Numbered from the stretch's first letter, positions 2,682 through 19,456 are shown. The stretch: 64,000 nucleotides of DNA from Promethearchaeota archaeon Loki_b31 (GCA_005222975.1 NJBI01000001.1:1-64000); one strand, 5' to 3'. The notes: generated from the letters alone by a model not told the origin. Made by a program: numbers and translations.

Positions 2682-2698
2682 ACTACTGTATAACCCTC

Positions 2699-2842
2699 TC
2701 AAATTAAAATCATTGAAAATTTGTCCCAGTTTCCTATTTCATGACTTTTAAAATGAACATCATAAGAACCCGTTGCTGTTTGAGTGAATGTCATAAGCCC
2801 CGTGGTCAATAAAATGTAACCAATACTTCCAAACGCTTCCAT
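2699..2842 (-). pseudogene. Short 47-aa ORF / possible gene remnant at left island edge
   Basis: ATG 2842 to TGA 2699 (MEAFGSIGYILLTTGLMTFTQ...). A shifted frame continues through the repeat as ...NEILLTIQNITIELRGVN*. Confidence 0.25.
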
Positions 2843-2862
2843 TAAAGCTTCTCTAGTTAATT

Positions 2863-3603
2863 CTACCCTTTGTATTTTTTTTTTCTTAATGAGAGACTTC
2901 TTTTCATTCTTTTTTTAAAATTTGGAAGAAAGCAAATTCCTATGCCGATTAAAAATATTAGTGTTATACCAGGCCCCAGACCTGCATCTGTTACCCTAGC
3001 ACCAGGATCTAACAAAAGGAAGAGAAAAATTCCAAAAAAAAGCAATACAACTGGTAGATATATTAATAATACTATTATAAATGCGATATTGACAATTTTA
3101 TTTTGAAATTCTTCAGCATCTTGTTCATAAGAGGCTAAAGACTCTGATTTTTGCAGAATTTTTTCAACATTCTGTTCAGGGGGAAATACAATTTCCTCAG
3201 TAGAGGTTGGCACTTCCGTTTTAAAAACAACATTTAATTTTGGCACTTCAGAATTAAGAGTAATTTTGTGCTTACCACTTGTGATGTTAAATTTATTCGG
3301 AACGATAATGACTAAGTTTTCCGCTGTCCGTAAATTAATATTGAGAATTTTTTCTAAATCTTGATTTTGAATTAATGAACCATCTAGTTTAACATGGAAA
3401 TCCTCCGAATATAAGTTTGTATCAAAGATTAAATCTCTATTTATTTTAATTTTACATCCGTAAATAAAGTCTCTTAACTTATATAAAAATAGCATTTTTC
3501 CAAATCGTTTACTACTCGAATTGAAATGAAATGATAGTTCAATAAATGCACCCTTAATTGTTATTGAGAAAAGATTTTTTATTAAACTACTAGGAATCCT
3601 CAA
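2863..3603 (-). CDS. Hypothetical protein, N-terminal beta-rich domain plus two C-terminal TM helices
   Basis: 246-aa ORF, TTG start, hydrophobic hairpin followed by a basic tail. Confidence 0.7.
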   Translation of the reverse strand: MRIPSSLIKNLFSITIKGAFIELSFHFNSSSKRFGKMLFLYKLRDFIYGCKIKINRDLIFDTNLYSEDFHVKLDGSLIQNQDLEKILNINLRTAENLVIIVPNKFNITSGKHKITLNSEVPKLNVVFKTEVPTSTEEIVFPPEQNVEKILQKSESLASYEQDAEEFQNKIVNIAFIIVLLIYLPVVLLFFGIFLFLLLDPGARVTDAGLGPGITLIFLIGIGICFLPNFKKRMKRSLSLRKKKYKG

Positions 3604-3774
3604 AAAAACACCTCTAGCTTTTATTATTAATTTATTTAAGTTAAATATTAATTATATAATTGAGTATAAAATTTATAAAATATATTAGACTGAATTTTTA
3701 CAATAGTATTTGAGTCTAAAATCGATATTGTGTTTGGTAAAAGGAATAAGACTATATCAATATTTTTTTAGGAT

Positions 3775-5061
3775 TTATTTACTCTCTTCTTCTGATGTCG
3801 TATCCGGCTTATCTTTCAATTCGTCATAAAGATTAAAAAAAGTCGGTAGCACCCCATATGGAGAATTCATTAATTCTTCTTTAATCATTTGGAACTTACT
3901 TTCATCCCCAATTATGTCCCTTAATTCTTTTTCTAAAGCGAAAGGAAGCTCCTTATATTTAGTCATAAGTAAAAAAGGCTCTTTCCTACTTTTAATAAGT
4001 TTACTGGGGAAATTAGAGAAGTACTTTTCAATTAAACTATAAGCAGTTGCATATTCTTTTTTATCTCTAATTGATTTTTTGAGATTTCTCTGAAATGTAA
4101 CCTCAAAATCCTTTGTAAACCCAGTTAAAGCATTCCTAAGTAATCTCGATGATTTAGAGGCAACCAAACCAACCGTGATATATTCAGATTCATTTAAAAT
4201 TAATATTCCTTCAGTTAAATCAATATTCACTAATCCACCAATTTTCATAACTTCTTCACTCATAATTTGTACAGCATTAATAAATCCTGTAAAAATTGGC
4301 TCATCTATGCCTGATTCAGACCAGTCGTGATCAAATAAAGGATATCCCTCATTATCTTTTACAACAATTCTATAAACAGTAAATGGTAAAATGTAAAGAA
4401 GTTTTGGTTCCATAAATATAGCTATACACATAATAAACACTCCTAAACTTAATGTAATGTCTGAATATAGAATAAAACTAGGATCCCAATAATAAAATAT
4501 GAAAACACCTGCTGTTATTGGTGTTGCTATTATGATACCAATAAAAAATATAAGAGCTTCCTTTCTAATCAAAAAGGGGGCGTTTAACCAAGTTTTTAAA
4601 CCCCAATAAAAAACAGGTATAAGAAGAAGGAATACTAAAAAATCCTCTAAAACTTCAAACATGCCTACTGGATTAACAGTTAAATATCCCCATTCAAATT
4701 CAAATCCAACAGCATCTGGTTGAAACGCTAAATAACAAAGTAAAACCCCCGCTCCAAATGTTAATATTAAAATAATTGAATTAATAGTTTCTTTAATCAT
4801 AAAATTAATCCCAATTATAAAGAACATTGAAGTAGGGAATAACATAATAGGATATAATCGAGCAAGAGTCGTGCTTAGGAAAAGGTTTGCTAGTAGATCG
4901 AAAACAAAATATAACACCATAAAAATCAAAGCCATTCTAATAAAAAATAGCGATCTTATTTTCTTTGTTCTGGGTTCGAAGTATGTTAGTAAGACAGCTA
5001 CAAAGATTGTTATGCTGGTAAAAATTTCGACTATTACTTCAGGTGTCCAATTTAAAACCAT
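3775..5061 (-). CDS. 7TM (HisKA_7TM-like) membrane sensor fused to cytoplasmic longin-like domain
   Basis: About seven hydrophobic helices in aa 1-225, then a longin-like pattern VYRIVVKDNEGYPLFDHDW...IFTGFINAVQIMSEEV...ITVGLVASK. Confidence 0.75.
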   Translation of the reverse strand: MVLNWTPEVIVEIFTSITIFVAVLLTYFEPRTKKIRSLFFIRMALIFMVLYFVFDLLANLFLSTTLARLYPIMLFPTSMFFIIGINFMIKETINSIILILTFGAGVLLCYLAFQPDAVGFEFEWGYLTVNPVGMFEVLEDFLVFLLLIPVFYWGLKTWLNAPFLIRKEALIFFIGIIIATPITAGVFIFYYWDPSFILYSDITLSLGVFIMCIAIFMEPKLLYILPFTVYRIVVKDNEGYPLFDHDWSESGIDEPIFTGFINAVQIMSEEVMKIGGLVNIDLTEGILILNESEYITVGLVASKSSRLLRNALTGFTKDFEVTFQRNLKKSIRDKKEYATAYSLIEKYFSNFPSKLIKSRKEPFLLMTKYKELPFALEKELRDIIGDESKFQMIKEELMNSPYGVLPTFFNLYDELKDKPDTTSEEESK

Positions 5062-5099
5062 TATTCTATACCTTTTTTATTAATATTTATTTATCTAAT

Positions 5100-5828
5100 T
5101 TAACTATTTTTGAAATATTCTAATTCACGAATATTAGAAATCTCGCTTAAAACCTCTATTACAATATCTCTCTTTTTCGGATTGAGTTTTACCTTATTAT
5201 CAGCTAATAACTCTAAAATCTGGAATTCTATTAAATTTTGAATCCGATAGTAGATAGTGCCTCTGTTTTCTCCTAACGATTTATAAATTTGAGAGCGTTC
5301 TTGAGAATCAGTTGATATTAAGTGGTTAAGAATTTTCCTATATAATTCGTCTTGTATAAGGAAATAAATTTTACCGCTTTCATCATCTATTTCAATTGGA
5401 AGAAAAATTGTGTAATTTTTTAAAGTTAGCTTTTTAATATAATTGAATTTAATGAGCATATCTAAATGCCATATCAATTCGCCTGGGCTACCTGTTATAT
5501 CACTAGAAATTCCAACTCTTTTAATAAGAGAAAAGTGGGAACCGATATTGCTTTGGATAAAATTATAGATTATTTTCCGCGTAGAATTAGACAAAACGGT
5601 TCTTCTTGTAAATCTTGACCGGTTCACTAAGATTTTATCATTGATTAAAAATTGAATGATAGCATTTAAACCCTTTCGGGGTATCTTTAAACGTTTTTTA
5701 GCACGATAATATAAGGAATCAATATTTAAAATCTTATTTTCATCTAATATTTCCTCAGCAATTTCTATCACTTGCTTTACACTTGGATGCTCTAATCCGA
5801 TAGAAATTAGGTTGACATATTGGTTCAT
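5100..5828 (-). CDS. Multi-winged-helix transcriptional regulator
   Basis: NSTRKIIYNFIQSNIGSHFSLIKR...GELIWHLDML and SQIYKSLGENRGTIYYRIQNL HTH patterns; 38 bp from the 7TM-longin gene on the same strand. Confidence 0.85.
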   Translation of the reverse strand: MNQYVNLISIGLEHPSVKQVIEIAEEILDENKILNIDSLYYRAKKRLKIPRKGLNAIIQFLINDKILVNRSRFTRRTVLSNSTRKIIYNFIQSNIGSHFSLIKRVGISSDITGSPGELIWHLDMLIKFNYIKKLTLKNYTIFLPIEIDDESGKIYFLIQDELYRKILNHLISTDSQERSQIYKSLGENRGTIYYRIQNLIEFQILELLADNKVKLNPKKRDIVIEVLSEISNIRELEYFKNS

Positions 5829-6058
5829 TTCTTTCTAAAACTATACAGTATAATTTAATAGATGTTTTTTCACGAATAGTTGATTGTCCCAAATTATAAT
5901 TCCAATGTATAAAAGGAGATATTATTATATTTAAACTTTAACAATTCTATAAAAATCCGAGGTATTTACATTTAATAACCCTAGATTTCATTTCTTTAAA
6001 TGCTCCATGCCCAATTTTATCTGGTTCTAACCACATCACATATTAGAATCGCTTATAC

Positions 6059-6162
6059 GATTGCAAAAATTCGGTCTAAATCATTTTTTAAGATAGTAAA
6101 CAGTTTTGTTTTACAAATCAAATATTTTTATGATTTGTTAAAAATTTGAATTAAAAGTGAAA
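6059..6162 (+). promoter_or_regulatory. Conserved ~100-bp promoter/operator module, copy A
   Basis: gattgcaaaaattcggtctaaatc...agttttgttttacaaatc...aaaattt...agtgaaa; homologous to 6807..6909 and 8602..8706. Confidence 0.75.
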
Positions 6163-6248
6163 TAAAAAATCAAAATTAAACTCTTGGGTACAGTTCTTTA
6201 AATTTCACTTTTCTATTAAAGAATCTAAAAAAATGTTGGTGAATAATA

Positions 6249-6635
6249 GTGGGACGAATAAAAGGGATTTTAGCCATATCGATTGGGATTTATATTTTAA
6301 TTACGTTCCTCGGTATAATATTTCAAGTTTTAAGTATTCGACCAGATATAGCAATTGCTTTCATAGTTAATTTTATAGTTTTTTGGATTTTTACATTTCT
6401 GATCCCTGGAATACTTTCAATAGCAAGATATAAAATGAGCGATAAGTCGAAGTGGTGGTATATGATTGCCCCGGTAGCTTCACTTTTAATGTTAGTCTAT
6501 ATGGTATTGATAATAAGTTTTTACGGAGATAATTTTTGGAATTATTTCGCTCAATATTTTATTTATGCCATAGGAGCATCAATACTCCTAAGTCTTATAA
6601 TCATTTGCTATGCCCATCAGGAGGGTGGTTTCTGA
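6249..6635 (+). CDS. Hypothetical 4-TM membrane protein
   Basis: 128 aa, GTG start, four hydrophobic segments. Confidence 0.7.
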   Translation: MGRIKGILAISIGIYILITFLGIIFQVLSIRPDIAIAFIVNFIVFWIFTFLIPGILSIARYKMSDKSKWWYMIAPVASLLMLVYMVLIISFYGDNFWNYFAQYFIYAIGASILLSLIIICYAHQEGGF

Positions 6636-6806
6636 ATTATTACCAAAAAAAACTCCGAACTGCTTAAAAAATTAATTTTATCTGAATCAGATTAATATAC
6701 AAATTTTTTTTTTTAATTTTCTTATTTTAAAATTAATCCAAATTGAATAATTACTCACTGCTTAGTGCAGGTTAAATGATATCATTTAACCCTAATTCAT
6801 TTATAA

Positions 6807-6909
6807 GATTGTAAAAAATCAGTCTAAATCTTTTTTTAAGTCAGTAAATAGTTTTGTTTTACAAATCTTATCTTTTTGTGATTTAATAAAAATTTTAATT
6901 TAGTGAAAA
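6807..6909 (+). promoter_or_regulatory. Conserved ~100-bp promoter/operator module, copy B
   Basis: gattgtaaaaaatcagtctaaatc...agttttgttttacaaatc...agtgaaa directly before ATG 6910; imperfect inverted repeat 6803..6816 / 6857..6871. Confidence 0.75.
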
Positions 6910-8499
6910 ATGATGAGAAAAAAAAAATTAAAAGTTTTAGTATTGATATTATTTTTGCTTTTACCAATAGAAATTATTACAAGTTCTTATACTAATAAGT
7001 TTCCTTTTTTATTAGTACAATCAGACGAAGAAATAGCAAAAACTGAAATAAAAATGTCACTGAATTCTTTTGGAATTGATTGGTTACCGGACGGGACGCC
7101 TATAAGTACGGCAAACAATAGCCAAAGGAATCCTCAAATTTGTAGCGATGGAGCTGGGGGTGCGATCATCACGTGGCAGGACTATAGAAGCGGATCGAAT
7201 TACGATATTTACGCGCAGAGAATTGATTCCTCCGGAAACTTACAGTGGACCGCTGATGGTGTAGTTATATGTACAGCAAGTGATAGCCAATATAGACCTG
7301 AAATATGTAGCGACGGAGCTGGGGGTGCGATCATCACATGGTACGACTATAGAAGCGGATTATACTCAGACATTTACGCGCAGAGAGTTAATCACTTAGG
7401 TAATATACAATGGACTATAAATGGCACAGCTATCTGCACAGCAGGCGAATCCCAATTAGAGTCTCAATTATGCAGTAATGGGGCAGGTGGTGCAATCATT
7501 ACTTGGATTGACTATAGAAGTGGATCTAATTACGATATTTATGTTCAAGAAGTTAGTTCTTCCGGAGGTATCGAGTGGAATATCAATGGTACAGCTATAT
7601 GCACAGTAAATAATGACCAAATTAATCCTCAGATATTTAGCGATGGATCGGGAGGTGCGATCATTACCTGGAAGGGTGCGGGTATTTACGCACAGAGAAT
7701 TGATTCCTCCGGAAATTTAAAGTGGACTGTAAATGGCACAGCTATCTGCACAGCAAATGGTGACAAAAGAATTCCTCAATTATGCAGTAATGGGGCAGGT
7801 GGTGCAATCATTACTTGGTTTGACTATAGAAGTGGATCTAATTACGATATTTATGTTCAAGAAGTTAGTTCTTCCGGAGGTATCGAGTGGAATATCAATG
7901 GTACAGCCATATGTACAGCAAATGGTGACCAATATGCTCCTCAATTATGTAGCGATGGATCGGGAGGTGCAATAATTACATGGTACGATGGTAGAAGTGG
8001 ATCCACTGGTCGTAATATTTACTCTCAGTCTATAAATTCCTCTGGAAATATACAGTGGACTAACAATGGCGTAGCTATATGTACTGCCAATAATGACCAA
8101 TGGGTCCCTCAATTGTGTAGCGATGGATCGGGGGGTGCGATAATTTCATGGTACGATAATAGAAATATCGATATAACAGGTCGAGATATTTATGTTCAGC
8201 TTATTAATTCCGCAGGAAATGTCTTGTGGATATCCAACGGTTTAGCTATATGCACAGTAAATAATGACCAAATTAATCCTCAGATATGCAGCGATGGAGC
8301 AGGAGGTGCGATAATTACATGGAACGATGGTAGAAGTGAAAACGACGATATTTATGCGCAACATATAAAATCGCCAGAATTAGAAGGTGGGGAGATTCCC
8401 TTTGTGATCATTGTTGCTATCGTTTCCTTCATTGGAATTGCAGTACTTATTGGCATAGCAACAACTTTAATAATTAAGAAACGCCGTAAAATTGAATAA
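6910..8499 (+). CDS. Cell-surface protein with ~59-aa beta-propeller-type repeats and C-terminal TM anchor
   Basis: Signal-peptide-like N-terminus; 7-8 repeats W..NGxAICTA..xQ..PQ(I/L)CSDGxGGAIITWxDxR...DIYxQ; anchor ends TLIIKKRRKIE. Confidence 0.88.
   Translation: MMRKKKLKVLVLILFLLLPIEIITSSYTNKFPFLLVQSDEEIAKTEIKMSLNSFGIDWLPDGTPISTANNSQRNPQICSDGAGGAIITWQDYRSGSNYDIYAQRIDSSGNLQWTADGVVICTASDSQYRPEICSDGAGGAIITWYDYRSGLYSDIYAQRVNHLGNIQWTINGTAICTAGESQLESQLCSNGAGGAIITWIDYRSGSNYDIYVQEVSSSGGIEWNINGTAICTVNNDQINPQIFSDGSGGAIITWKGAGIYAQRIDSSGNLKWTVNGTAICTANGDKRIPQLCSNGAGGAIITWFDYRSGSNYDIYVQEVSSSGGIEWNINGTAICTANGDQYAPQLCSDGSGGAIITWYDGRSGSTGRNIYSQSINSSGNIQWTNNGVAICTANNDQWVPQLCSDGSGGAIISWYDNRNIDITGRDIYVQLINSAGNVLWISNGLAICTVNNDQINPQICSDGAGGAIITWNDGRSENDDIYAQHIKSPELEGGEIPFVIIVAIVSFIGIAVLIGIATTLIIKKRRKIE
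7463..7907 (+). repeat. Near-identical intragenic duplication (7463..7595 vs 7775..7907)
   Basis: 133 bp with one mismatch (Ile/Phe codon). Another 44-bp exact match occurs at about 7593..7636 vs 8244..8287. Confidence 0.85.
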
Positions 8500-8601
8500 A
8501 AACTAAATTCATCTTTTCTTTTTTCTTAATTTCTAATTATCGAAGCATCAAAAGTTAACAAACCTATTCATTAAATCGATATAAAAATGATAATTTAATG
8601 T

Positions 8602-8706
8602 GATTGTAAAAATTCAGTCTAAATTATTTTATAAGTCAACAAGCAGTTATATTCTGCAAATCTTAATTTTTAATTTAATAAAAATTTTAAAAAAAAGTGA
8701 AATTCA
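8602..8706 (+). promoter_or_regulatory. Conserved ~100-bp promoter/operator module, copy C
   Basis: gattgtaaaaattcagtctaaatt...agttatattctgcaaatc...atttaataaaaattttaa...agtgaaa directly before ATG 8707. Confidence 0.72.
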
Positions 8707-11700
8707 ATGAAAATTAAAACAAAAAAAGGAATATTATACTTAGGAGTTGCTTTTCTACTATGCCTTAACAGCATTTTTCCTTATATTCTCATTGAAAATA
8801 TCGTACTCGAAACGGATATTCAAGAAAAAAATCTACCAAGGCTTAGCAGTCAATATATTAATATAATTACTCCAGAAAATAAAACTTACATAGGAGGGAT
8901 GCAAGGTTATTATCCTGCAACATATGGCTTTGAGAATGAGACACTAGGGTCAGATCCAATTGAATGGTTAAGTATTCGTAGTGGAGGTACCGTTCGTATA
9001 GTTGAAGAAGTAGGAACCCATAAGAATGTTGCAAAAATACGGGATATAGATAATTCTGGCTATGTTTCTTTTCTCAATCAATTTGATTCCAATAAAGTAT
9101 CAGGAACAGTCGAATTCTGGGTAAGTACAAATGATACATCTAAAGCATTTTATATGAGGATCTTAGCATCCATTTCAGAAAGAGCCGTGATGATGAGAAT
9201 CGAAAATAATTATATTTATTGTCAAGATTCTACTACTTGGAGGGTCGTAAAATCAATTTCAAATAATAAATGGTACCATTTCAGTATTGAATTTGATTGC
9301 TCAACTGATACTTACAATTGTTGGATTGATGGGAATCTAGAAGCAGCAGATTATGGATTTAGAGACAGTGATATTAGTTCAGTTAGTAAGATACAGTTAT
9401 ATACCACCAATATTGAGGTAGATTATGAGATATATGTTGATGCTGTAGGATATTCTTGGGATATTAATTACAATATTGGAGATAATTTTTATGAAGGACT
9501 ATTGCTTAGTTTCACTAATAATACCAAGCTCGATTGGGTAGGTTATTCATTAGATGGTCAATCAACTAAAACTATTTATGGAAATACATCAATTCCAACA
9601 CCTAATGATGGATTACATAGTATTCAATTGTTTGGAAATGACTCATTGGGAACGGGATATCATTCAGATAAAAGATGGTTCAAAGTTGAAGCATTTTCAA
9701 ATAATTATATAGAAGACTTTACTACTACGACGTATATGGATGATCTTGCTACTAATTCTTCAGGATGGGGGTCTGGAGCCCTGAATTTACCGAACAAAAA
9801 TTTAACTGTTAATGTTTTTGAAGCGCCAAGTAATTGGAGATCAAGCAAAGTTCAGATGTCTGGAGATATAGTATACTCTGCTAATTATTATAGATTTGAA
9901 ATCCATGATATTAGTAATCCGAGCGAACCAATTCTACTTTCAGCGTATTCAGATGGTTGTTATGACTTCGTTATATCTGGAAACTATGCATACATAGCAG
10001 CTTATCGTCATGGATTAATAATATTGGATATTTCAGATAAAAGCAATCCTAGTCTTTTAGGCTCGTGTGATAACTATCAGACTCATTCGAGTATTACTGA
10101 TTTATATGCAACGACTATTGAGATTAAGGGGGCATATGCTTACATTTGGGATATGATACATGAATTAATAGTAATCAATATTGCTGATCCTAGTAACCCC
10201 TTTAAAGCCGGAGATTGGCTTGAGAGTGGTGGATTTTATGGGGAAAAAATGATAATTAAAGACAATTACCTTTATTTATTAACTGGAAATGTAATAATTT
10301 TTGATATAAGCAGCCCTACGAGCCCATCAGATGTGTATACTTATAATACAGGGACCTATTATGACACAGGAGTTATTTCTGGCAATTACTTATATTTACC
10401 TGGACAATATACTTTAGACATCTTAAATATTATTACCCCTACAGCTCCTGCTTTTGTAAGTTCCACAAGTACTGGAGTATCTGGCCCACAGAGTATCGCT
10501 TTCGATAATACTTTTGTCTATATAGGAGGTAATAGAATTGCATCACCCAATAATTACGGATTAGTTGAAATATACGATGTTTCTAATGTCGTAAATCCTC
10601 AATTTGAATATAGGTATATATCTCCGTGTGCAGATCCTTCTCATAGTTCAATGATCGATACAATTGACGTAATAAATGGATTTTCGTTTATGTATGATTA
10701 TAGAGGATATTATATCATCGCAGATTTCAATTTAATCGATCAATATGAAGCAATAGCTATTGGTCAATCGTCATCAATATATTCGGGAACATCCAATGTA
10801 TTATTGACACAACTATTACTTACAGTTTCTGAAGAATTACCCTCGGATACAGGAATTACTTATTACATTTCCGCAGATAACGGAACCCACTGGGAGCAAA
10901 TTATTCCAAATTCCGTTCATGCATTTGAATATCTAGGAAATCAACTAAAATGGAAAGCTGTATTAACAACTTCTCACTTATATAGAACGCCACAATTAAA
11001 TTCCTTAAGCATTGCATATTTACCATTATTAAATGGAACTATTTTATTATCACCATTGAATCATACCCATACAAATGATAACACTCCCTATTTTGAGTGG
11101 GAAGATATACCAGAAGCTACAGATTATATTATTCAATTGGATACCTCTACAACTTTTAATTCTGTTGATTATCGATATCAAAAGGTTAATAACAATTACT
11201 GGACAGCAAGTCCCTTTTTACAGGATAATACTTGGTATTGGAGAGTTGCTGGAATAGATTCAAAGAACGATGTAGGATTTTTCTCAGCTTATAATATACT
11301 TTATATTGATACACCTCCCGGGCAGTCAACTCTCATATCGCCAGAAAATAATAGATACATCGCTACAAGTAACCCTACATTCACATGGAGCGAAGCATAT
11401 AACGCTTTAAACTATACATTACAGCTAGATTCGTCCAATACATTTTCTTCAGGGGATCTTATAATATATAGCCAAATTCTATTAACAAGCTATTCACCAA
11501 CTTCACCTATCACTGACGGTATATGGTATTGGAGGATCCAAGCTTTCGATAATACAGGAAATAGCGGTCCTTATTCAGACGTTAATTTAATTATAATCGA
11601 TGCAACAATACCATCAATAGACCAACCAAATGATAAATCATATAAGGAAGGATCTACAGGTAATAGGATTGTCTGGAATTCTAATGATATTAATCCGGAT

Positions 11701-11979
11701 CGTTGTGAAGTAACCAGAGACGAAACAATTGTTAGGGATAACTCATGGGATGGAAATATTATCATTATTGATATAGATGAGTTATCTATTGGAACTTATA
11801 TCTATACCTGTACAGTTTACGATAAGGCAGGGAATTCAAATAGTGATATTGTGACTGTAACAGTTGAAGAAGCTGAAAATTTATTTGGACCGTTCATAAT
11901 TGCTTCCTTTATTGGTATAGTAATGGTTATTGGTATTGCAATGACTTTAATAATTAAAAAACGCCGTAAAATTGAATAA
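8707..11979 (+). CDS. Large multidomain cell-surface protein (LamG/ConA-like, LVIVD repeats, FN3/Ig-like domains, C-terminal TM anchor)
   Basis: Signal peptide; NNKWYHFSIEFD (LamG-like); ISGNYAYIA...GLIILDISDKSNP (LVIVD); two P(Y/T)FxW...YxxQLDxSxTF...WYWR units; anchor ends TLIIKKRRKIE. Confidence 0.88.
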   Translation: MKIKTKKGILYLGVAFLLCLNSIFPYILIENIVLETDIQEKNLPRLSSQYINIITPENKTYIGGMQGYYPATYGFENETLGSDPIEWLSIRSGGTVRIVEEVGTHKNVAKIRDIDNSGYVSFLNQFDSNKVSGTVEFWVSTNDTSKAFYMRILASISERAVMMRIENNYIYCQDSTTWRVVKSISNNKWYHFSIEFDCSTDTYNCWIDGNLEAADYGFRDSDISSVSKIQLYTTNIEVDYEIYVDAVGYSWDINYNIGDNFYEGLLLSFTNNTKLDWVGYSLDGQSTKTIYGNTSIPTPNDGLHSIQLFGNDSLGTGYHSDKRWFKVEAFSNNYIEDFTTTTYMDDLATNSSGWGSGALNLPNKNLTVNVFEAPSNWRSSKVQMSGDIVYSANYYRFEIHDISNPSEPILLSAYSDGCYDFVISGNYAYIAAYRHGLIILDISDKSNPSLLGSCDNYQTHSSITDLYATTIEIKGAYAYIWDMIHELIVINIADPSNPFKAGDWLESGGFYGEKMIIKDNYLYLLTGNVIIFDISSPTSPSDVYTYNTGTYYDTGVISGNYLYLPGQYTLDILNIITPTAPAFVSSTSTGVSGPQSIAFDNTFVYIGGNRIASPNNYGLVEIYDVSNVVNPQFEYRYISPCADPSHSSMIDTIDVINGFSFMYDYRGYYIIADFNLIDQYEAIAIGQSSSIYSGTSNVLLTQLLLTVSEELPSDTGITYYISADNGTHWEQIIPNSVHAFEYLGNQLKWKAVLTTSHLYRTPQLNSLSIAYLPLLNGTILLSPLNHTHTNDNTPYFEWEDIPEATDYIIQLDTSTTFNSVDYRYQKVNNNYWTASPFLQDNTWYWRVAGIDSKNDVGFFSAYNILYIDTPPGQSTLISPENNRYIATSNPTFTWSEAYNALNYTLQLDSSNTFSSGDLIIYSQILLTSYSPTSPITDGIWYWRIQAFDNTGNSGPYSDVNLIIIDATIPSIDQPNDKSYKEGSTGNRIVWNSNDINPDRCEVTRDETIVRDNSWDGNIIIIDIDELSIGTYIYTCTVYDKAGNSNSDIVTVTVEEAENLFGPFIIASFIGIVMVIGIAMTLIIKKRRKIE

Positions 11980-11989
11980 AAACAAAATT

Positions 11990-12003
11990 ATTTTTTTTTT
12001 TTT
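11990..12003 (+). terminator. Archaeal oligo-T terminator
   Basis: Run of 13 T just after the stop codon of 8707..11979. Confidence 0.6.
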
Positions 12004-12064
12004 AATTCACCCCTCTTAGTTCAATCGCAATGTTTTGAATTGTTAATAGGATTTCATTTTTTTT
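12002..12064. repeat. 63-bp direct repeat, right copy (partner 2619..2681)
   Basis: ttaattcacccctcttagttcaatcgcaatgttttgaattgttaataggatttcatttttttt; two C/T differences from the left copy. Confidence 0.92.
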
Positions 12065-12424: not shown

Positions 12425-12717
12425 ACAAAATTATAATAAATTTCCACTTTTCTTTTTTTTATTATTCATTGATGTCTATGTTAATACATTTAAAAAATTA
12501 GGATTTTAACGAATATTAGATTATTTTCCATTATAATCGGAATTAGAGATTAATAAAGAATTTGGGAAGTCTCTCCCTCGAATCTTGCAGTGCTTATGAT
12601 TTCCAAAATAAAAAAATAGGTGCAACGAGAATTTTAAGTTCTACTTCCTTTGATACTAAGTATATTTAAAACCATAAGATGTGTTGAGATGGAACTAATT
12701 GTAAAAGAAGAAAATAT

Positions 12718-15700
12718 TTAAAATATTTTAGATTTGCCTAATTCATCCCATCCAATTATTATGCGATTTGGAAATTGTTCTGCGACATCATCTAAATGAG
12801 TTATTAGGATAATTTTTTTAAATAATGATTTGAGTTCAAAAATCTTTTCTACGAATCTCTGTCTTGAAGTTTCTGTATCTAAGGTACCAATATCTCCCTC
12901 ATCAATAAATAAAGTATCCGATTTTCGAAAAACCGCCCCAGTAGTATCTGGAATTTCCGCTATTCGCTCCATTATAGCAAATCTTATGGCAGCATTAATT
13001 TGAGTTTTTTCACCTCCCGAAAAGCTGGATGCCTCCCTTTCTCGTTCTCCATCAAATACATATATTTCAAACCCTATATTTTTTCCACTTAAAGATTTGA
13101 AAATAATTTGATTATATTTTCCCTCTGTAAGATCACTTAGAATTTCTGAAGCTTTGATTGAGATAGCTGGAAGTATTTTTTCTATAGCAAACTTAGCAAC
13201 TCCATTAAGATGAAATACATCCTTTCGTAAAATTGTATATTTTTCAATATTATTTTTAACTTGTTCTATTTCTTTCTGAATTTGTTTGATCTTTATTTTG
13301 AATTCTTTTATTCGATTAATTTCTTTTTTAATAAATCCGATTTCCCCTTTCAAACCTTGTAATAATTCATTTATCTCATTTAAGTCCTGTTGTTTTTTTT
13401 CAAACTTTCGTGCAACTTCTAAATATTCTTCATAAGAAGGTTTTAGTCTTTTTAGCTCTTCCTCTAATTTTTCTAATTTCTCTTTCAGGTTAAAAATATC
13501 TTTTTCGCTTTTTCTAATTAAGGGAGCATAATCCTTTATTTCTTTTAATCTTCTTTCTAACTCTTCTCTCTCTTCTTCTTGTCTTTTGAGCTCCTCTAAC
13601 TTTTTAGTAATAATTGATAATTGCTCCTCAAAATTTTCGATTAATCTTTGTTTAACGAGACTTGCATTTAATTTTTTAACTTTTTTTTCTACTTCTCCTA
13701 ATTCCTCTGTCTTTTTCTTCTCAATTTTTTTTAATTTTTCTTGTAATATTCGGTAATCTATCTTGATTTCATCTGCAATGAAAACATCTTTTGTTATTTT
13801 CTTTTGTTTAGGTCTAATTACCTGCAATTCTATTTGAGTTTTTTCTTCTGTAGCGATAAATTCTTTTATGCGTTTATCGTCCTTATATTCTTTAGCCATA
13901 GGTAGTTCAATTTTTTGCAGCCTGTAAAGTCTTTCTGTTAACATACCATCCTCTTTTAAAGTATTAAACGCTTCGTCTTTACTTATATCAACATCTAAGT
14001 CGGAAAGTCGGGATTCCCTTTTTTGAATTTGATCAATCAACATCTCTAATTGCTCATCATATTGCTTTTCTATACGATCTAGCATTTTTTGAGTACTCTC
14101 TATTTCAGATTGTATTAACTCTTTCTCATGTATTTTTTTATTAACGATCTCTTTTCGTTTTTCTAAATCTTCTTTCTCGTTTCTAATATCGTGAAATTTT
14201 TCTAACTTTTTTTGGAGATTTTCGAATTTATTTTGCTGGATTTTAGACATTTTAAGTTCTTCCTCATTCTTACCAACATCAATCTCTAACTCATCGATAG
14301 ATTTCTTAGTATTAGAGTAGTTAAAAGCTTCAATTTGCAATCTTTCCGTTTCTTCTTTTAATTTTTGCACTTCTTTTGAAATAATTGTTTTTTCTTTTTC
14401 TTGTTGCAGAACTTCTTCATTTTTTAGTTTTAAATTTTTTATATACTGAGGCAATTCTTCAATTAATACTCCTAATTCGTCAGTCTTTCCTTCAAAAAAC
14501 TTTTGATTCTCTACGAGATCCATTATTACAGTTTTTAAATTTTTCTCAACCTCTTGAAAAATCTTCAACTTAAACAATTTTATAAGCCTCTTATGTCTTT
14601 TAGAAGAGTCAAGAGATGAAAATATCTGTAATTCTTGCTGTCTTATAAAAAAGGAAGATGTGAATCCTTCGTAATCGTAACCTATAATCCCCTCTAATTT
14701 TTCCTCTTTTTCTGGAATTTTCAGACCAGTATATAATGGCTCATTCTCAAATTTTAGCTCTAGTTTAGGCGAAGTTTGCCTTCTTTTTACAACTAATAGT
14801 TGATCTCCAATTAAAAGTTCAAGATTTACGTATCCTTTATCGTATAATATTTCATCAAGAGTAAGTCCTACATCTCTACGAGAATTTCTTTTAAAAAGAG
14901 CAAATGTAATAGCATCTAATATTGAAGACTTTCCTGAACCTGTAGGACCTTTTATAACATATAAACCATCTTCAAAAACAATTTTATTTGGTCCTTTTCC
15001 GTAGTTAATAAAATTTTGCATATCAATAGATCTTATTGATAAAGAACCTTTAGTAGTTAAATCAACTAAGGAAATCTCCTTTGCAAGTAATTCTAAACCA
15101 ATACTTTTCAGTTCTCCGTAATATTTATGAGTTGAATATTTCTGCTCGAGAAAATCTTTAAATAAGCTTCTTGGATCTAAATTAACCTTCCGAAGCTTTT
15201 GAAGCTCAAGACCAATTTTTTCTTTATAGTTCAAATTAGTATAAAAAGAATCTTTAAAATACTGTTGTAGCTGATTTTTATTAATTTTTACTTCCATTCC
15301 TTTAGAACAATAAATTGCGATTTCACATATGGATTCTTTAACGCTTTCTTTTTCTGGTAGAGCTTCTAAAATAAATCGATTTAGATCTTCTGTATCATTT
15401 GGAATTTCTATATTTAGTTTTATAAGATTTCTACATTCTATTTCTCTAAATTCTAAATCGTCGTTCTCAATATCATAAACGCAGTAAAACTTTTTTGAAT
15501 CTCTTTCCCCCATATCAAGCCTATCAATTGACCCTGGAATTATAATTCGATCGTCGTTCCACATTTTTTGTTTTAAATGTACATGTCCAAAAATAACGAG
15601 ATCAAATTTATCTTTTTGAATCATTTGTTTATTAAATCGAAATTCCCCGTAAATCGTTCTAGGATTATTCGTTTCTCGAATTTTGGCCCCATCCAAATAA

Positions 15701-16320
15701 TAATGTCCAATTAGAATTCTTTTTTGACAATCTTTTAGTTTAGTCTTGCATATCTGTGCAATATAATTTTGAAAAATGTGTTGAGCAATTATGTAATTAT
15801 TCTGATTTTCAAGAATTTCTTTTTCTATAAAGCCCTCATTTTTAGCCATCTTTACTAAAACATCAAAATGGATATAGGGTAGAAAAATAATGCCAGCCTT
15901 CTTCTCATTAATTTCAATTATTAGATGTTTTAGACCTGTGTACACGTTAACATTAGAAAAGTTTGCTAATTCTTGAACATCCGCCCCTCTCTTAGGATTC
16001 CTTATAGAATCGTGATTACCGCCAATAATAATTGTTTTTATCTGGTGTTCATTTAAAGGTATGAAGATTTTTTCACGCACGATTTTTCTGATAGTAGGAG
16101 AAATCATCTGCCTTTCGTATAAATCTCCTAGAAAGATCACATAATCTGCTTTTTCTTCTATAGCTGCATTAACAATTTTTTCGCAATTGTTAATTACATC
16201 AAAATTTCTTTCTGAAATACTTAACTCATAATTTTTGCGATAAGAATACGGTTTTCCAAAATGAGTATCCCCTATGAAAAATATCTTTGTAATGATCCCT
16301 TCACCTGTTTTTATCTTCAA
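12718..16320 (-). CDS. mre11-rad50: Fused Mre11 nuclease - Rad50 ABC ATPase
   Basis: N-terminal GDTHFG, GDLYE, GGNHD, GHVH phosphoesterase motifs. From aa ~428: IRSIDMQNF, GPTGSGKS, coiled coil, FSGGE, FIDEG, ITH. One continuous frame, TTG start. Confidence 0.95.
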   Translation of the reverse strand: MKIKTGEGIITKIFFIGDTHFGKPYSYRKNYELSISERNFDVINNCEKIVNAAIEEKADYVIFLGDLYERQMISPTIRKIVREKIFIPLNEHQIKTIIIGGNHDSIRNPKRGADVQELANFSNVNVYTGLKHLIIEINEKKAGIIFLPYIHFDVLVKMAKNEGFIEKEILENQNNYIIAQHIFQNYIAQICKTKLKDCQKRILIGHYYLDGAKIRETNNPRTIYGEFRFNKQMIQKDKFDLVIFGHVHLKQKMWNDDRIIIPGSIDRLDMGERDSKKFYCVYDIENDDLEFREIECRNLIKLNIEIPNDTEDLNRFILEALPEKESVKESICEIAIYCSKGMEVKINKNQLQQYFKDSFYTNLNYKEKIGLELQKLRKVNLDPRSLFKDFLEQKYSTHKYYGELKSIGLELLAKEISLVDLTTKGSLSIRSIDMQNFINYGKGPNKIVFEDGLYVIKGPTGSGKSSILDAITFALFKRNSRRDVGLTLDEILYDKGYVNLELLIGDQLLVVKRRQTSPKLELKFENEPLYTGLKIPEKEEKLEGIIGYDYEGFTSSFFIRQQELQIFSSLDSSKRHKRLIKLFKLKIFQEVEKNLKTVIMDLVENQKFFEGKTDELGVLIEELPQYIKNLKLKNEEVLQQEKEKTIISKEVQKLKEETERLQIEAFNYSNTKKSIDELEIDVGKNEEELKMSKIQQNKFENLQKKLEKFHDIRNEKEDLEKRKEIVNKKIHEKELIQSEIESTQKMLDRIEKQYDEQLEMLIDQIQKRESRLSDLDVDISKDEAFNTLKEDGMLTERLYRLQKIELPMAKEYKDDKRIKEFIATEEKTQIELQVIRPKQKKITKDVFIADEIKIDYRILQEKLKKIEKKKTEELGEVEKKVKKLNASLVKQRLIENFEEQLSIITKKLEELKRQEEEREELERRLKEIKDYAPLIRKSEKDIFNLKEKLEKLEEELKRLKPSYEEYLEVARKFEKKQQDLNEINELLQGLKGEIGFIKKEINRIKEFKIKIKQIQKEIEQVKNNIEKYTILRKDVFHLNGVAKFAIEKILPAISIKASEILSDLTEGKYNQIIFKSLSGKNIGFEIYVFDGEREREASSFSGGEKTQINAAIRFAIMERIAEIPDTTGAVFRKSDTLFIDEGDIGTLDTETSRQRFVEKIFELKSLFKKIILITHLDDVAEQFPNRIIIGWDELGKSKIF

Positions 16321-16350
16321 TATTACTATTTTAAGGAAAAACTGAATTCA

Positions 16351-18027
16351 TTAATTCTCTTCTAATTTAGTTAAATCAGCTTTTTCCAGAGCTTTAAGCG
16401 TTTCTGCAAGAGGTTTTCCAATCCCTAACTTCTCTTTTAGTTCTTTTTCGTTTTTATAGTCAAAGACATCGATAATAGTAGGGACTGCGACAGCGTCTCC
16501 TCGGATAAGACATTGTTTCTTTTGTAGCCCTGAGATAATTCCGCGCCATTTCTTTGAATCAGGGAATGTTTTAACAACCCGTTTAATATCCTTGTCGTCA
16601 ATCATATGCATTACAAATGTATTTGCTATTTGTGAATATACCTCTTCATCAATTTGAGAAGGCCTCTGGTCGACAAATGCTAAAGTTAATTGAAACTTCC
16701 TCATTTCCCGAGCAATTCGACCGAATATAGTATGCTGGATCACTCCTGATTTTAAGAATTTATGAGCTTCTTCTACGACTACTATTAAAGGAGGTAATTT
16801 CGTGTCGTCTTCTTTTTGAGAATACATGTTATATAATCTACGAGTAATCATATTTGCTATGAACATATATAGATGAGTATTAGTTCCGTATTTTCCAAAA
16901 TCAACTACGATCGACTTTCCCTCAAGTAATCTGATAAAAATATTTTCTAAACTATCTTCCCTTTTACTCTCACCACGTTCTTTTAAAAAGTCATACCTTT
17001 TAAATCGGATAATTCTGTTTCTTAAAGCACCCAAAGAGAAGGAATTGATCTGATTGTGTTCTCCAGCATCAATCTTATCAATTGCATCAAATAAATCCTT
17101 AAATTCTTCAGGATTATTCTTTATATAACCTTCAATATACATTAATACATTAATACTCGGTTCATTTAATGTCTGGGTGCTAGCGATAATATCCCCTGAA
17201 GTTATGCTATCCTTATATATGAAAAATTGCTCTGCCCCATCAGTCGTTGTACGTTTCTTATCCAATTCACCAAGACGATAAATTTGTATTTTCTCTCGAT
17301 AATACCATGCTAACCCTTTTGTTTTGTCTGCGCGGGAAACTAATCCATATTCACCTTGCATATCAAATAAGATTAATTGAGAGATTTGATGCTTCAAAAT
17401 AAAAAGACATATTATTTTATTCAAAATGGATTTTCCAATTCCAGTTCTTCCAAATAGTCCGTATGGTTTCTTTACCAACTGAGCAAAATCAATAGGAACT
17501 TCATGTTCAAAACCTCTTAATGTACCAATTGAATCAGAATATTCTGAAGTTTTATAGATTAGATCAATCTCTTCTTTTGTTACTTCACGCCCATTCGAAA
17601 ATATCGGAGGAATCGTATCAAATCCCCGTATGAGCTCTTGAAATTCTATTTCTTCTAAACTTTTTTTAGGTAATATTCTAAGACAACTTAAATCAGCAAG
17701 ACCGTAAAATTCTTTCCCTCTTACACCCTCTATTTGGCTTGGGGGAAGCAAATCAATAAACGGAGAGTTTGCAAATCTCTCCGCAATAGAATTTCGAGTA
17801 CTGAAATATAAACGATTTATTAAGGTATAATATATAAGATTATCAGTTTCAATAACTAATGGTTGCCCTAATCTTAAACTATCGGGTCGATGTTGTATTT
17901 TTAAAGTTATTACGCTATCAGGTGGTCCTGTGTCTGCATAACACACTTCTCCAATTTTACCGATCTGTACTGGTTTTTCTAAATTTTCTAATTCTATTTC
18001 AATTTCTTTATTTCCTTTTTCTGACAT
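16351..18027 (-). CDS. herA: HerA DNA helicase/translocase
   Basis: HAS-barrel-like N-terminus, GRTGIGKS, FDMQGEY, VEEAHKF, REMRKF, DQRPS; lies between nurA and mre11-rad50. Confidence 0.93.
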   Translation of the reverse strand: MSEKGNKEIEIELENLEKPVQIGKIGEVCYADTGPPDSVITLKIQHRPDSLRLGQPLVIETDNLIYYTLINRLYFSTRNSIAERFANSPFIDLLPPSQIEGVRGKEFYGLADLSCLRILPKKSLEEIEFQELIRGFDTIPPIFSNGREVTKEEIDLIYKTSEYSDSIGTLRGFEHEVPIDFAQLVKKPYGLFGRTGIGKSILNKIICLFILKHQISQLILFDMQGEYGLVSRADKTKGLAWYYREKIQIYRLGELDKKRTTTDGAEQFFIYKDSITSGDIIASTQTLNEPSINVLMYIEGYIKNNPEEFKDLFDAIDKIDAGEHNQINSFSLGALRNRIIRFKRYDFLKERGESKREDSLENIFIRLLEGKSIVVDFGKYGTNTHLYMFIANMITRRLYNMYSQKEDDTKLPPLIVVVEEAHKFLKSGVIQHTIFGRIAREMRKFQLTLAFVDQRPSQIDEEVYSQIANTFVMHMIDDKDIKRVVKTFPDSKKWRGIISGLQKKQCLIRGDAVAVPTIIDVFDYKNEKELKEKLGIGKPLAETLKALEKADLTKLEEN

Positions 18028-18069
18028 TTAATTTTGACCTTTTTATTTTTTTATATAGGAAAAATTGAA

Positions 18070-19140
18070 TTATCTTGATAATTGATCCAAAATTTCATGG
18101 AATGAGCTTAACTCTTTTCCTCCTAAATCTACCGCACCTTCCAAAATATCATTGGCACTAAGCCCCATATCTTTTAGCACCCTAATAAGTTCTAATTCGT
18201 AAGAATCTTTAAAATCCCTTACACTTTTAGCAATTTTATGAGCTTCAATAAGACCTATTGGATAACCAGGCACTAATTTAACCATAGAATATGCTGCAAT
18301 CGATGAAAATAATTTATCAATATTACCTCCATCATTACCTATATCTACTCTAAACCACTTATATGCTTCTTTATGCAATTTAGCAAAATGTATTTTACCC
18401 CAAGCATCAAATTTTGTTTGTCTTTCTATAAATGTATCTGGAATCTTGATATAGGTTAAGTTTGAATATTTTTTATCATAATATCTTTTTAAGAAAAAAT
18501 CATCAGTGTAATTATCTCTAAAGAAATGAGTTGATGTTGATTTAGAGATACCGGCTAATAAAATATCGTTCATCCTGCAATTTAATATTATGCTTTTATA
18601 AATTGGCTCTCTTTCAAGCGCTTTATATGTAAGTAAAGCTCCGTCTTTAAGTAAAATACAATTATTATAAGTTTCCGAAATTTTTTCTAATGTTATATCT
18701 TCCAAATAACTCATTATATTGCTAGCAAATAAAGAAGGGTTTCTTTCTTGGAACGCTGTAGCAATCTCTGCCGCTTTAGAGAAGACTTCTGGTTGAGAGT
18801 CCAATATAAACTCGTTGAAACTTAATAAATTAAGGTGATCAAATGTCTTTGGGGGTGCATTAATTAAATAATATATTTTACCATTTTTTACTTGGATTTT
18901 ATACTCTGTAACCACAATTCGAAATAATGCAATCCATGTGTCTGCACCTAAAAAGGAAAATAAAATACTATAAGAACCATCAATAGATACTAATGGTAAT
19001 TCTTCTCCTATGATTTTAGGTAATTCAAATTGAATCGCTTCAATTTCTTTACCTTCAAATTCTCTAATTGATTCTCTAGGTTTACCAAAATTTACTAAAT
19101 TTAACAGGTTCTTAATTTTCTGGATATCTTCAGTTTTCAT
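18070..19140 (-). CDS. nurA: NurA 5'-3' nuclease
   Basis: SIDGS, LKDGAL, AGISKS, FRVD, GYPIGLIEAH motifs; operon context. Confidence 0.92.
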   Translation of the reverse strand: MKTEDIQKIKNLLNLVNFGKPRESIREFEGKEIEAIQFELPKIIGEELPLVSIDGSYSILFSFLGADTWIALFRIVVTEYKIQVKNGKIYYLINAPPKTFDHLNLLSFNEFILDSQPEVFSKAAEIATAFQERNPSLFASNIMSYLEDITLEKISETYNNCILLKDGALLTYKALEREPIYKSIILNCRMNDILLAGISKSTSTHFFRDNYTDDFFLKRYYDKKYSNLTYIKIPDTFIERQTKFDAWGKIHFAKLHKEAYKWFRVDIGNDGGNIDKLFSSIAAYSMVKLVPGYPIGLIEAHKIAKSVRDFKDSYELELIRVLKDMGLSANDILEGAVDLGGKELSSFHEILDQLSR

Positions 19141-19456
19141 ATCTTATAATCCTTTTAATTTTTCTTTGACTAAACTTTAAAGATTTAAAGATATTCAATC
19201 TTTAAAAAATTTAATCATAGCATAAAACCATTACATTTCATTTTTAATTAATATATTAATTATTTTATCAATATAAATAAAAAATTGTATTAATCCTTGG
19301 CTAAGAGATTATTTGTTCTTTTAAAATTATTAGCCTTCACCATTTTTAAACTTCAAGGACTTTTAAAATTTAATAGTTTTTAGAATGGATGTTAAGTGGC
19401 TAATATGAAATTAATAAAAGATATTGAAAAATTTAAAATTTTATTAGATTTAATCT

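Follow-up and report, generated by a model that had tools for sequence, protein, structure and literature searches.

Can a single archaeal gene encode a working Mre11-Rad50 (MR) complex, and what would such a gene do in its cell? The question is raised by a 1200-codon open reading frame (ORF) of Promethearchaeota archaeon Loki_b31 (GCA_005222975.1), an Asgard archaeon of the Lokiarchaeia type. It lies in the stretch NJBI01000001.1:1-64000, here called the window, a DNA of 64,000 nucleotides to which all window coordinates refer. An initial annotation, made from the sequence alone, described this frame as a natural fusion of Mre11 and Rad50. We find a genuine fusion, kept in frame across its orthologues. 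It probably encodes a functional single-chain Mre11-Rad50 (SbcDC-like) protein from a Rad50 subfamily that lacks the zinc hook. With nurA and herA it forms a cassette that most likely stands in for the canonical operon in this genome (Table 1).

The Mre11 nuclease, the cap, and the helical segment that had been placed in frame with Rad50 are all found, with both domain sets conserved in one frame. In Pfam, Metallophos (PF00149) matches residues 12-248 (E 1.3e-13; 52.2 bits against a cut-off of 21.5), and AAA_23, the SMC/Rad50-type head, matches residues 431-657 (E 4.5e-13). The NCBIfam models place sbcD at residues 12-277 and the N- and C-lobes of Rad50/SbcC at residues 428-664 and 860-1179, all below the equivalog cut-offs. 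The scores are 64.7 bits against 77.65 for TIGR00619 (sbcD), 39 against 550 for Mre11_Halo and, among the Rad50/SbcC equivalogs, 96.1 against 478.5 for the best, TIGR00618, and 94.5 against 700 for NF003034. In an AlphaFold2 (AF2) model (mean predicted local distance difference test, pLDDT, 76.4), the Mre11 half has the nuclease and cap fold, with Foldseek matches to 3av0_A (TMt 0.65), 4tug_C (0.72), 3thn (0.74), and E. coli SbcD 4m0v (0.68). The Rad50 half matches 7zr1 and 3auy by fold and, in profile searches, M. jannaschii Rad50 3aux (E 1.6e-24) and E. coli SbcC 6s6v_C. Between the Rad50 lobes the model predicts a long antiparallel coiled coil, with near-continuous helices over residues 587-1064 and a fold-back at 775-843. 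The Mre11 helix-loop-helix is the element that binds the base of the Rad50 coiled coil; its predicted equivalent here is formed by model helices 383-395 and 401-417, which align with the C-terminal end of split Mre11 proteins. The N-terminus is uncertain by about nine residues: orthologues start with MTKIFF, and the listed TTG start lies nine codons upstream of ITKIFF.

No stop codon interrupts the junction LVDLTTKGSLSIRSIDMQNF (residues 418-437; window 15010..15069), in agreement with the initial annotation. The companion claim, that no start codon stands where Rad50 would begin, holds only in part. The position equivalent to the Rad50 start is L427, encoded by TTA, but an in-frame ATG seven codons later (M434; window 15019..15021) had been overlooked. 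This ATG speaks for a Rad50 that is also, or only, made separately, by initiation at M434 or by proteolysis of the linker, which would give a conventional two-chain M2R2 complex. We consider such a scheme very improbable. Position 434 is not conserved (M, L, I, or V in orthologues) and falls within strand beta-1 of the Rad50 lobe, no GGAGG-like ribosome-binding motif was seen upstream of it when the sequence was read by eye, and the short linker is conserved, its glycine being invariant. For the T. maritima complex, a linker of 9-12 residues was calculated to span the gap from the end of Mre11 to the start of Rad50 (Yoshida, Claverie and Ogata 2011, Virol J 8:427, PMC3175470), and the nine residues found here are at the lower end of this estimate. 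With both domain sets in one chain, the fusion would fix the Mre11:Rad50 stoichiometry at 1:1, as had been proposed. It should also lend itself well to structural studies.

Among 5.8 billion protein clusters, a homologue search retrieved 27 representatives of 1186-1200 amino acids, with 99% query coverage, 46-62% identity, and the same domain set. The named fused homologues belong to metagenome-assembled genomes of Promethearchaeota/Lokiarchaeota. All conservation counts rest on an alignment of 24 full-length orthologues. In this alignment, Mre11 motifs I-V are invariant (D18, H20, G65, D66, G101, N102, H103, D104, H206, G245, H246, H248), as are residues of the Rad50 N-lobe (G458, T460, G461, G463, K464, S465, Q561) and C-lobe (S1101, G1102, G1103, E1104, D1140, E1141, D1143, D1148, H1175). 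The linker is kept, with G425 invariant, and mean column identity is 64%, highest at the active sites. Full-length homologues in this number and at this level of identity, the conserved linker, and the invariant catalytic residues exclude an artefact or a freshly lost stop. Moreover, the split sister genes described below are in different frames with an ATGA overlap, and thus the loss of a single stop cannot make this junction. The possibility that the frame is an assembly or sequencing error, two genes joined by a recently lost stop, or an inactive relic is suggested by a related contig (L057) on which nurA, herA, and the fusion are each in pieces. It is largely refuted by the frames of the split sisters, by column identity peaking at the active sites, and by conservation of frame, linker, and catalytic residues in aligned orthologues from many independent assemblies, and we give it next to no credence. 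The L057 locus itself (5247-11467) is a copy of the cassette in a housekeeping neighbourhood, with each of the three genes in two ORFs; either the copy is decaying or its assembly is rich in indels.

The nearest unfused relatives are Rad50s of about 800 amino acids from Thermoplasmatota and from one Asgard family, f22, in which one Mre11 is identical to a protein named Thorarchaeota. In these split hookless relatives, mre11 (about 400 amino acids) and rad50 overlap by 4 nt (ATGA), and the locus also encodes HerA and NurA. The initial annotation had suggested a phylogeny for each half, and we built maximum-likelihood trees from 75 rows for Rad50 and 43 rows for Mre11. In the Rad50 tree the fused proteins form one clade (SH-like approximate likelihood-ratio test, SH-aLRT, 100), sister (98) to the split hookless clade; in the Mre11 tree the fused clade has support of 99, and its sister relation to the split hookless pairs 94. 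Both trees thus place the loss of the hook before the fusion and count one fusion only: it arose once, after hook loss, from a lineage with an adjacent mre11/rad50 pair overlapping by 4 nt. The pair P0086 and P0041 was considered as a further split relative and rejected, nurA and herA on that contig also being in pieces. A second, very distant class of single-chain proteins with Metallophos and AAA_23 domains was seen in ENA metagenomes (P0068, P0070, and P0071; 1035 amino acids, 22-23% identity); it is without CxxC and forms a long branch beside the hookless clade.

To our knowledge, the zinc hook is regarded as an essential and universal feature of Rad50/SbcC. By direct counting, CxxC occurs nowhere in the protein in any of the 24 fused orthologues, nor in the Thorarchaeota or Thermoplasmatota split relatives. 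Most of the 24, the window protein included, lack cysteine entirely in the Rad50 half, and a few carry a stray single cysteine in the coiled coil. A mid-protein CPxC was present in all 20 canonical Rad50/SbcC sequences retrieved, and three split Rad50s from the same genus carry CPTC or CSLC hooks. We relied on direct counting since the zinc-hook profile PF04423, which gave no match in the window's genome, G204, or G210, is insensitive: among 14 control genomes it matched in just 3, and it fails to detect the CPTC of G210.

The position of the hook is taken by a conserved block (A784, F785, G792, E796, R797, R800, E805, P807, D814 in the orthologues), and the motif AF..L...G.L.ER..R...E...I..D.F...E is common to the fused proteins and their split hookless relatives. 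When two copies of residues 730-890 were modelled together, the self-pairing score was 0.58, and the best of three controls reached 0.00; contact agreement between runs was at least 92% and partner pLDDT at least 81. Of 30 proteins solved as same-chain pairs, 20 reached the pairing mark, as did 1 of 23 whose structures are single chains; these benchmark counts are only rough for this test, which used our own alignment. The predicted symmetric interface (788-817) falls on the invariant G792, E796, R797, R800, and E805. The modelling supports the interpretation that the cysteine-free apex serves as a zinc-free substitute for the hook. The clade as a whole, fused and split, with its conserved cysteine-free apex predicted to self-pair, thus offers a natural test of what the hook is for. 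The same clade shares the D-loop FIDEGDLG[ST]LD; the comparison of the window's FIDEGDIGTLD with SbcC plus one inserted residue was apt, the loop being one residue longer than SbcC-type DEGFG[ST]LD throughout.

The fusion is the last of three genes on one strand, with gaps of 30 nt between the fusion and herA and 42 nt between herA and nurA. HerA matches the central domain PF01935 above cut-off (E 1.5e-15), the NCBIfam HerA models to E 3e-23 (82 bits), below equivalog cut-offs, and the PADLOC HerA model at E 1.4e-34 (117.6 bits). Its identity is 55% with the HerA whose gene adjoins the fusion in G165 and 40% with the HerA of the Thorarchaeota operon. The 356-residue protein encoded upstream is a sub-threshold match to Pfam NurA (E 0.0027), and its profile gave no matches among Protein Data Bank sequences. 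Folded by AF2 with seven orthologues (pLDDT 76.6; predicted template-modelling score 0.76), it matches S. solfataricus NurA 2ygk (E 6.9e-10; TM 0.52-0.56), T. kodakarensis HerA-NurA 9x1n, and P. furiosus NurA 3tai, and these matches to solved structures identify it as NurA. A NurA-size gene precedes herA in all eight orthologue contexts that reach far enough, and five aligned NurA orthologues are 49-67% identical. A sigma-70 promoter scan showed no excess over shuffles, with a model unsuited to an archaeon. The operon had been called an otherwise canonical nurA-herA operon. The presence of herA and of a gene with the NurA fold upstream of the fusion was correctly recognized, but the qualifier cannot be kept: the Rad50 half is hookless with a different apex, the order is nurA-herA-MR instead of herA-mre11-rad50-nurA, and the cassette is accessory, its place in congeners being empty or taken by a split operon.

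Comparison with genomes of the same genus delimits the cassette. In the closest relative, G204, the slot is empty and the flanks abut, window position 19439 lying next to 12466 (blastn). In G210 the slot (window 19212 to 12598) holds a split, hook-bearing herA(582)-nurA(330)-mre11(434)-rad50(697) operon; G206 has a split operon of the same type, and G141 has a hook-bearing nurA(376)-herA(522)-mre11(431)-rad50(703). The slot lies between an aminotransferase gene and an Alba gene. Its flanks are 92-95% identical at the DNA level to G204 and G210, and the neighbouring aminotransferase is 95% identical in both. The split Rad50s of the congeners have Walker B of the DEPT/DEPL type, and the proteins of their split operons are only 23-28% identical to those of the window. 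Cassettes have been exchanged at one locus here; the split genes are not an unfused form of the same fusion. Split genes in close relatives had been named as grounds for rejecting a natural fusion. Congeners do have split genes, but at about 25% identity these belong to a different lineage. The fused hookless, split hooked, and empty states at one slot among near-identical genomes amount to a natural swap experiment, which bears on the dispensability and interchangeability of archaeal end-resection machines.

Mis-binning of the contig was considered and rejected, the flanking genes being 95% identical to same-genus genomes. No tRNA was found by a scan of window positions 1-24000, and thus there is no tRNA-linked integration site in this region. 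Neither the fusion nor its HerA has an orthologue in the 16 or 20 other sampled genomes of the genus. In the window's own genome (92% complete) we found no other complete MR/HerA/NurA operon. The candidates for a canonical second MR set were a lone Mre11-like protein of 397 amino acids (C16, L022:4228-5421, minus strand, G000; Mre11_Pyroc, 2.6e-23) beside a PHP-domain protein, and a lone Rad50/ASRP-like ATPase of 664 amino acids (C83, L021:5598-7592, plus strand, G000) beside two unknown genes and a large subtilase; neither adjoins a partner, and both were rejected. Two further HerA paralogues in this genome have no nuclease neighbours. As a separate observation, the split Rad50 of G210 (L044:2415-8832) matches the defence models LmuB (9.5e-29) and mad3 (4e-25), and its HerA matches mad8 (4e-15); judging by the scores of this operon, the boundary between repair and defence families of HerA and SMC proteins is blurred in defence libraries.

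Given that congeners carry the canonical split operon in exactly this slot, the cassette most likely represents a xenologous replacement and forms the cell's end-resection machinery. For the activity, oligomeric state, and cellular role that we infer, the model is the canonical MR complex. By this analogy, two chains would pair via the Mre11 nuclease domains, the ATP-engaged Rad50 heads, and the cysteine-free helical apex. The product would be (MR)2, an ATP-dependent nuclease of DNA ends whose 1:1 stoichiometry is built in, and it would act in DNA-end processing (resection) together with the co-transcribed HerA translocase and NurA nuclease. The fused lineage would now travel as a compact nurA-herA-mre11::rad50 cassette.

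Several observations weigh against this reading. All curated equivalog cut-offs, whether for Mre11, Rad50, SbcC, SbcD, or HerA, are missed. The pairing of the apex is a matter of model confidence on coiled-coil fragments. Twenty other genomes of the genus lack the cassette, and among 201 sampled genomes of the phylum the fused form was found in just 2. In G204, which is 97% complete, the slot is empty and no match to the SbcD/Mre11 family (TIGR00619) was found genome-wide, which indicates that the function is dispensable or condition-specific. (G204 may live without any Mre11.) Finally, defence-type neighbours (Piwi, OLD-TOPRIM, MmeI-type restriction-modification, Schlafen-like helicase) occur in six of nine contexts, the window being one of the nine, and to this an accessory or immune role is better suited than housekeeping.

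These neighbours bring in another explanation, that the cassette serves primarily as an accessory module for immunity or against mobile elements, in which the fused MR and HerA-NurA would degrade invading linear DNA and, beside a prokaryotic Argonaute, would supply or consume the DNA ends or fragments that Argonaute uses. All eight orthologue contigs with upstream sequence carry the nurA-herA-fusion module intact. A long Piwi/Argonaute gene lies directly upstream on the same strand in four of the nine contexts, from two sub-clades, and in two of these four an OLD-family TOPRIM ATPase lies directly downstream. Genes for MmeI/Eco57I-type restriction-modification and Schlafen-like helicases flank two other contexts. 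The patchy presence of the cassette between genomes whose flanking aminotransferase is 95% identical and the higher score of HerA with the PADLOC HerA model than with repair HerA equivalogs (117.6 vs 82 bits) point the same way. On the other hand, no match to Piwi was found in the window's genome, no defence gene adjoins the cassette here, and the cassette sits in the slot of a canonical repair operon. Two contexts, of the P0027/P0028 lineage, share a conserved housekeeping neighbourhood with gyrase, F420 ligase, and Robl_LC7, the one in which the broken copy on L057 also lies. In searches with PADLOC (Lamassu, MADS, SIR2-HerA, DUF4297-HerA, Gabija) no system was matched: the fusion showed only generic similarity to SMC heads (mad3 1.2e-11, LmuB 2e-10), HerA matched HerA models only, NurA had no match, and the SIR2, DUF4297, and LmuA partners were absent. 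Plasmid, phage, and IMG/VR viral records yielded no close relatives, the matches there being at most 25% identical. Moreover, variable islands gather accessory genes of many kinds, and a neighbourhood alone is weak evidence. On balance, a primarily immune function appears unlikely, and replacement of the canonical end-resection operon remains our preferred reading, one that leaves room for a defence role of the cassette beside end processing.

A more specific proposal, to which we assign a slightly lower probability still, is that archaea use the hookless single-chain MR, together with its HerA and NurA, as a mobile end-processing module for immunity, which would partner Argonaute where the two are co-oriented, and that this module displaced the housekeeping operon in genomes such as this one. 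Such a module might make guide DNA from invader ends or destroy targets after Argonaute nicking. A partner role of this kind has been ascribed to RecBCD for some bacterial Argonautes. The Argonaute and restriction neighbourhoods bear on the boundary between DNA repair and defence. In one Piwi-linked locus, a 115-codon ORF (L051:11610-11957) with weak SbcC Walker-B/SMC_N matches lies between the fused gene and the OLD-family ATPase and may be a remnant of another Rad50-like gene.

Table 1. Coordinates of the cassette, its genes, and the domains of the fusion protein in the window.
Feature	Window coordinates	Strand	Details
Inserted/exchanged cassette, boundaries relative to same-genus genomes	12466..19439	.	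blastn
nurA-like nuclease gene	18070..19140	-	356 aa; first gene of the cassette
herA helicase/translocase gene	16351..18027	-	558 aa
mre11::rad50 single-chain fusion gene	12718..16320	-	1200 aa (P0001); single uninterrupted reading frame
Mre11 phosphoesterase and capping domains	15220..16287	-	Residues 12-367; invariant motifs, secondary structure from AF2 model
Two-helix element, predicted equivalent of Mre11 helix-loop-helix	15070..15174	-	Residues 383-417
Fusion linker LVDLTTKGS	15043..15069	-	Residues 418-426; 9 residues, G425 invariant
Rad50 N-lobe	14563..15042	-	Residues 427-586; Walker A GPTGSGKS, Q-loop; strand beta-1 = 427-437
Ascending coiled-coil arm	13999..14562	-	Residues 587-774; model helices 587-620, 623-706, 713-774; low conservation
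Cysteine-free apex in place of the zinc hook	13792..13998	-	Residues 775-843; helical at 781-840 in model
Descending coiled-coil arm	13129..13791	-	Residues 844-1064; helices in model
Rad50 C-lobe	12718..13128	-	Residues 1065-1200; SGGE signature, Walker B/D-loop FIDEGDIGTLD, H-loop TH

Compared with G204 and G210, the window has another insertion apart from the cassette, about 9.3 kb long and at positions 2684..11967. It is flanked by 75-nt direct repeats (2607-2681 and 11990-12064; 95% identical) that are single-copy in the relatives, and no integrase or tRNA was seen in it. Its genes encode unknown proteins of 246 and 428 amino acids, a helix-turn-helix protein (5100..5828), a 529-residue protein, and an LVIVD/Ig-like surface protein of 1090 amino acids (8707..11979). 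The 529-codon ORF (6910..8499, plus strand) contains about seven tandem repeats of 165 nt (55 amino acids) at 7041-8338, with a faint beta-propeller match. A 77-nt AT-rich element precedes three consecutive genes of the insertion (6052-6128, 6800-6876, and 8595-8671; 78-84% identity), with an inverted partial copy at 3673-3704, and may be a shared promoter or regulatory element.

Among the closest known systems are the natural Mre11/Rad50 (SbcD/SbcC) fusions, Mimivirus R555 and twelve others, reported from viruses, plasmids, bacteria, and eukaryotes (PMC3175470). The statement in the initial annotation that the two are normally separate genes therefore needs the qualification that fusions had been published, but no archaeal case is listed among them, and we found no literature on an archaeal Mre11-Rad50 fusion or on the Rad50 zinc hook in Lokiarchaeota. 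The published fusions are polyphyletic and fall outside the canonical clades, as does the fusion described here. Compared by description, plasmid and phage records having given at most 25% identity, the two also share an N-terminal Mre11 (nuclease, cap, and a helix-loop-helix that is predicted here), a C-terminal Rad50 in the same chain, a linker of about 9-12 residues, and a sporadic distribution suggesting lateral transfer. They differ in that no HerA-NurA partners are described for the published fusions, and most of their cellular hosts keep a canonical split set (PMC3175470), whereas none was found here and the fusion fills the canonical slot.

The archaeal herA-mre11-rad50-nurA operon of Sulfolobus, Pyrococcus, and Thermococcus (PMC13748450) likewise brings four activities together on one strand, with intact Mre11 and Rad50 motifs. 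The cassette has three genes instead of four, in another order and without a zinc hook, its D-loop is SbcC-like plus one residue and not of the DEPT type, and it is accessory and exchangeable, not core. A 2026 review of archaeal NurA (PMC13748450) does not contain the words 'fused' or 'fusion' and calls Asgard NurA uncharacterised.

The split hookless pairs of Thorarchaeota (f22), G025, and Thermoplasmatota (about 400 and 800 amino acids) are sister to the fusion in both trees and agree with it in apex motif, D-loop, lack of CxxC, and HerA and NurA encoded in the same locus. Unlike the fusion, they consist of two genes with a 4-nt overlap, at 28-34% identity. The operon order is herA-mre11-rad50-nurA in Thorarchaeota; in Thermoplasmatota, nurA-herA follows mre11-rad50 about 2 kb downstream, past one gene on the opposite strand.

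The best sequence and fold matches of both halves are E. coli SbcCD and the Mre11-Rad50 complexes of M. jannaschii and T. maritima (6s6v, 3av0, 3qg5), and the head architecture of these complexes with the Mre11 helix-loop-helix is predicted here too. Their subunits are separate chains with a zinc-hook apex, and identity in structural alignments is 12-18%. To these systems the present analysis adds an exact slot exchange with split hook-bearing operons, congruent trees of the two halves that place one fusion after hook loss, a clade-wide apex motif, and a self-pairing test of the apex.

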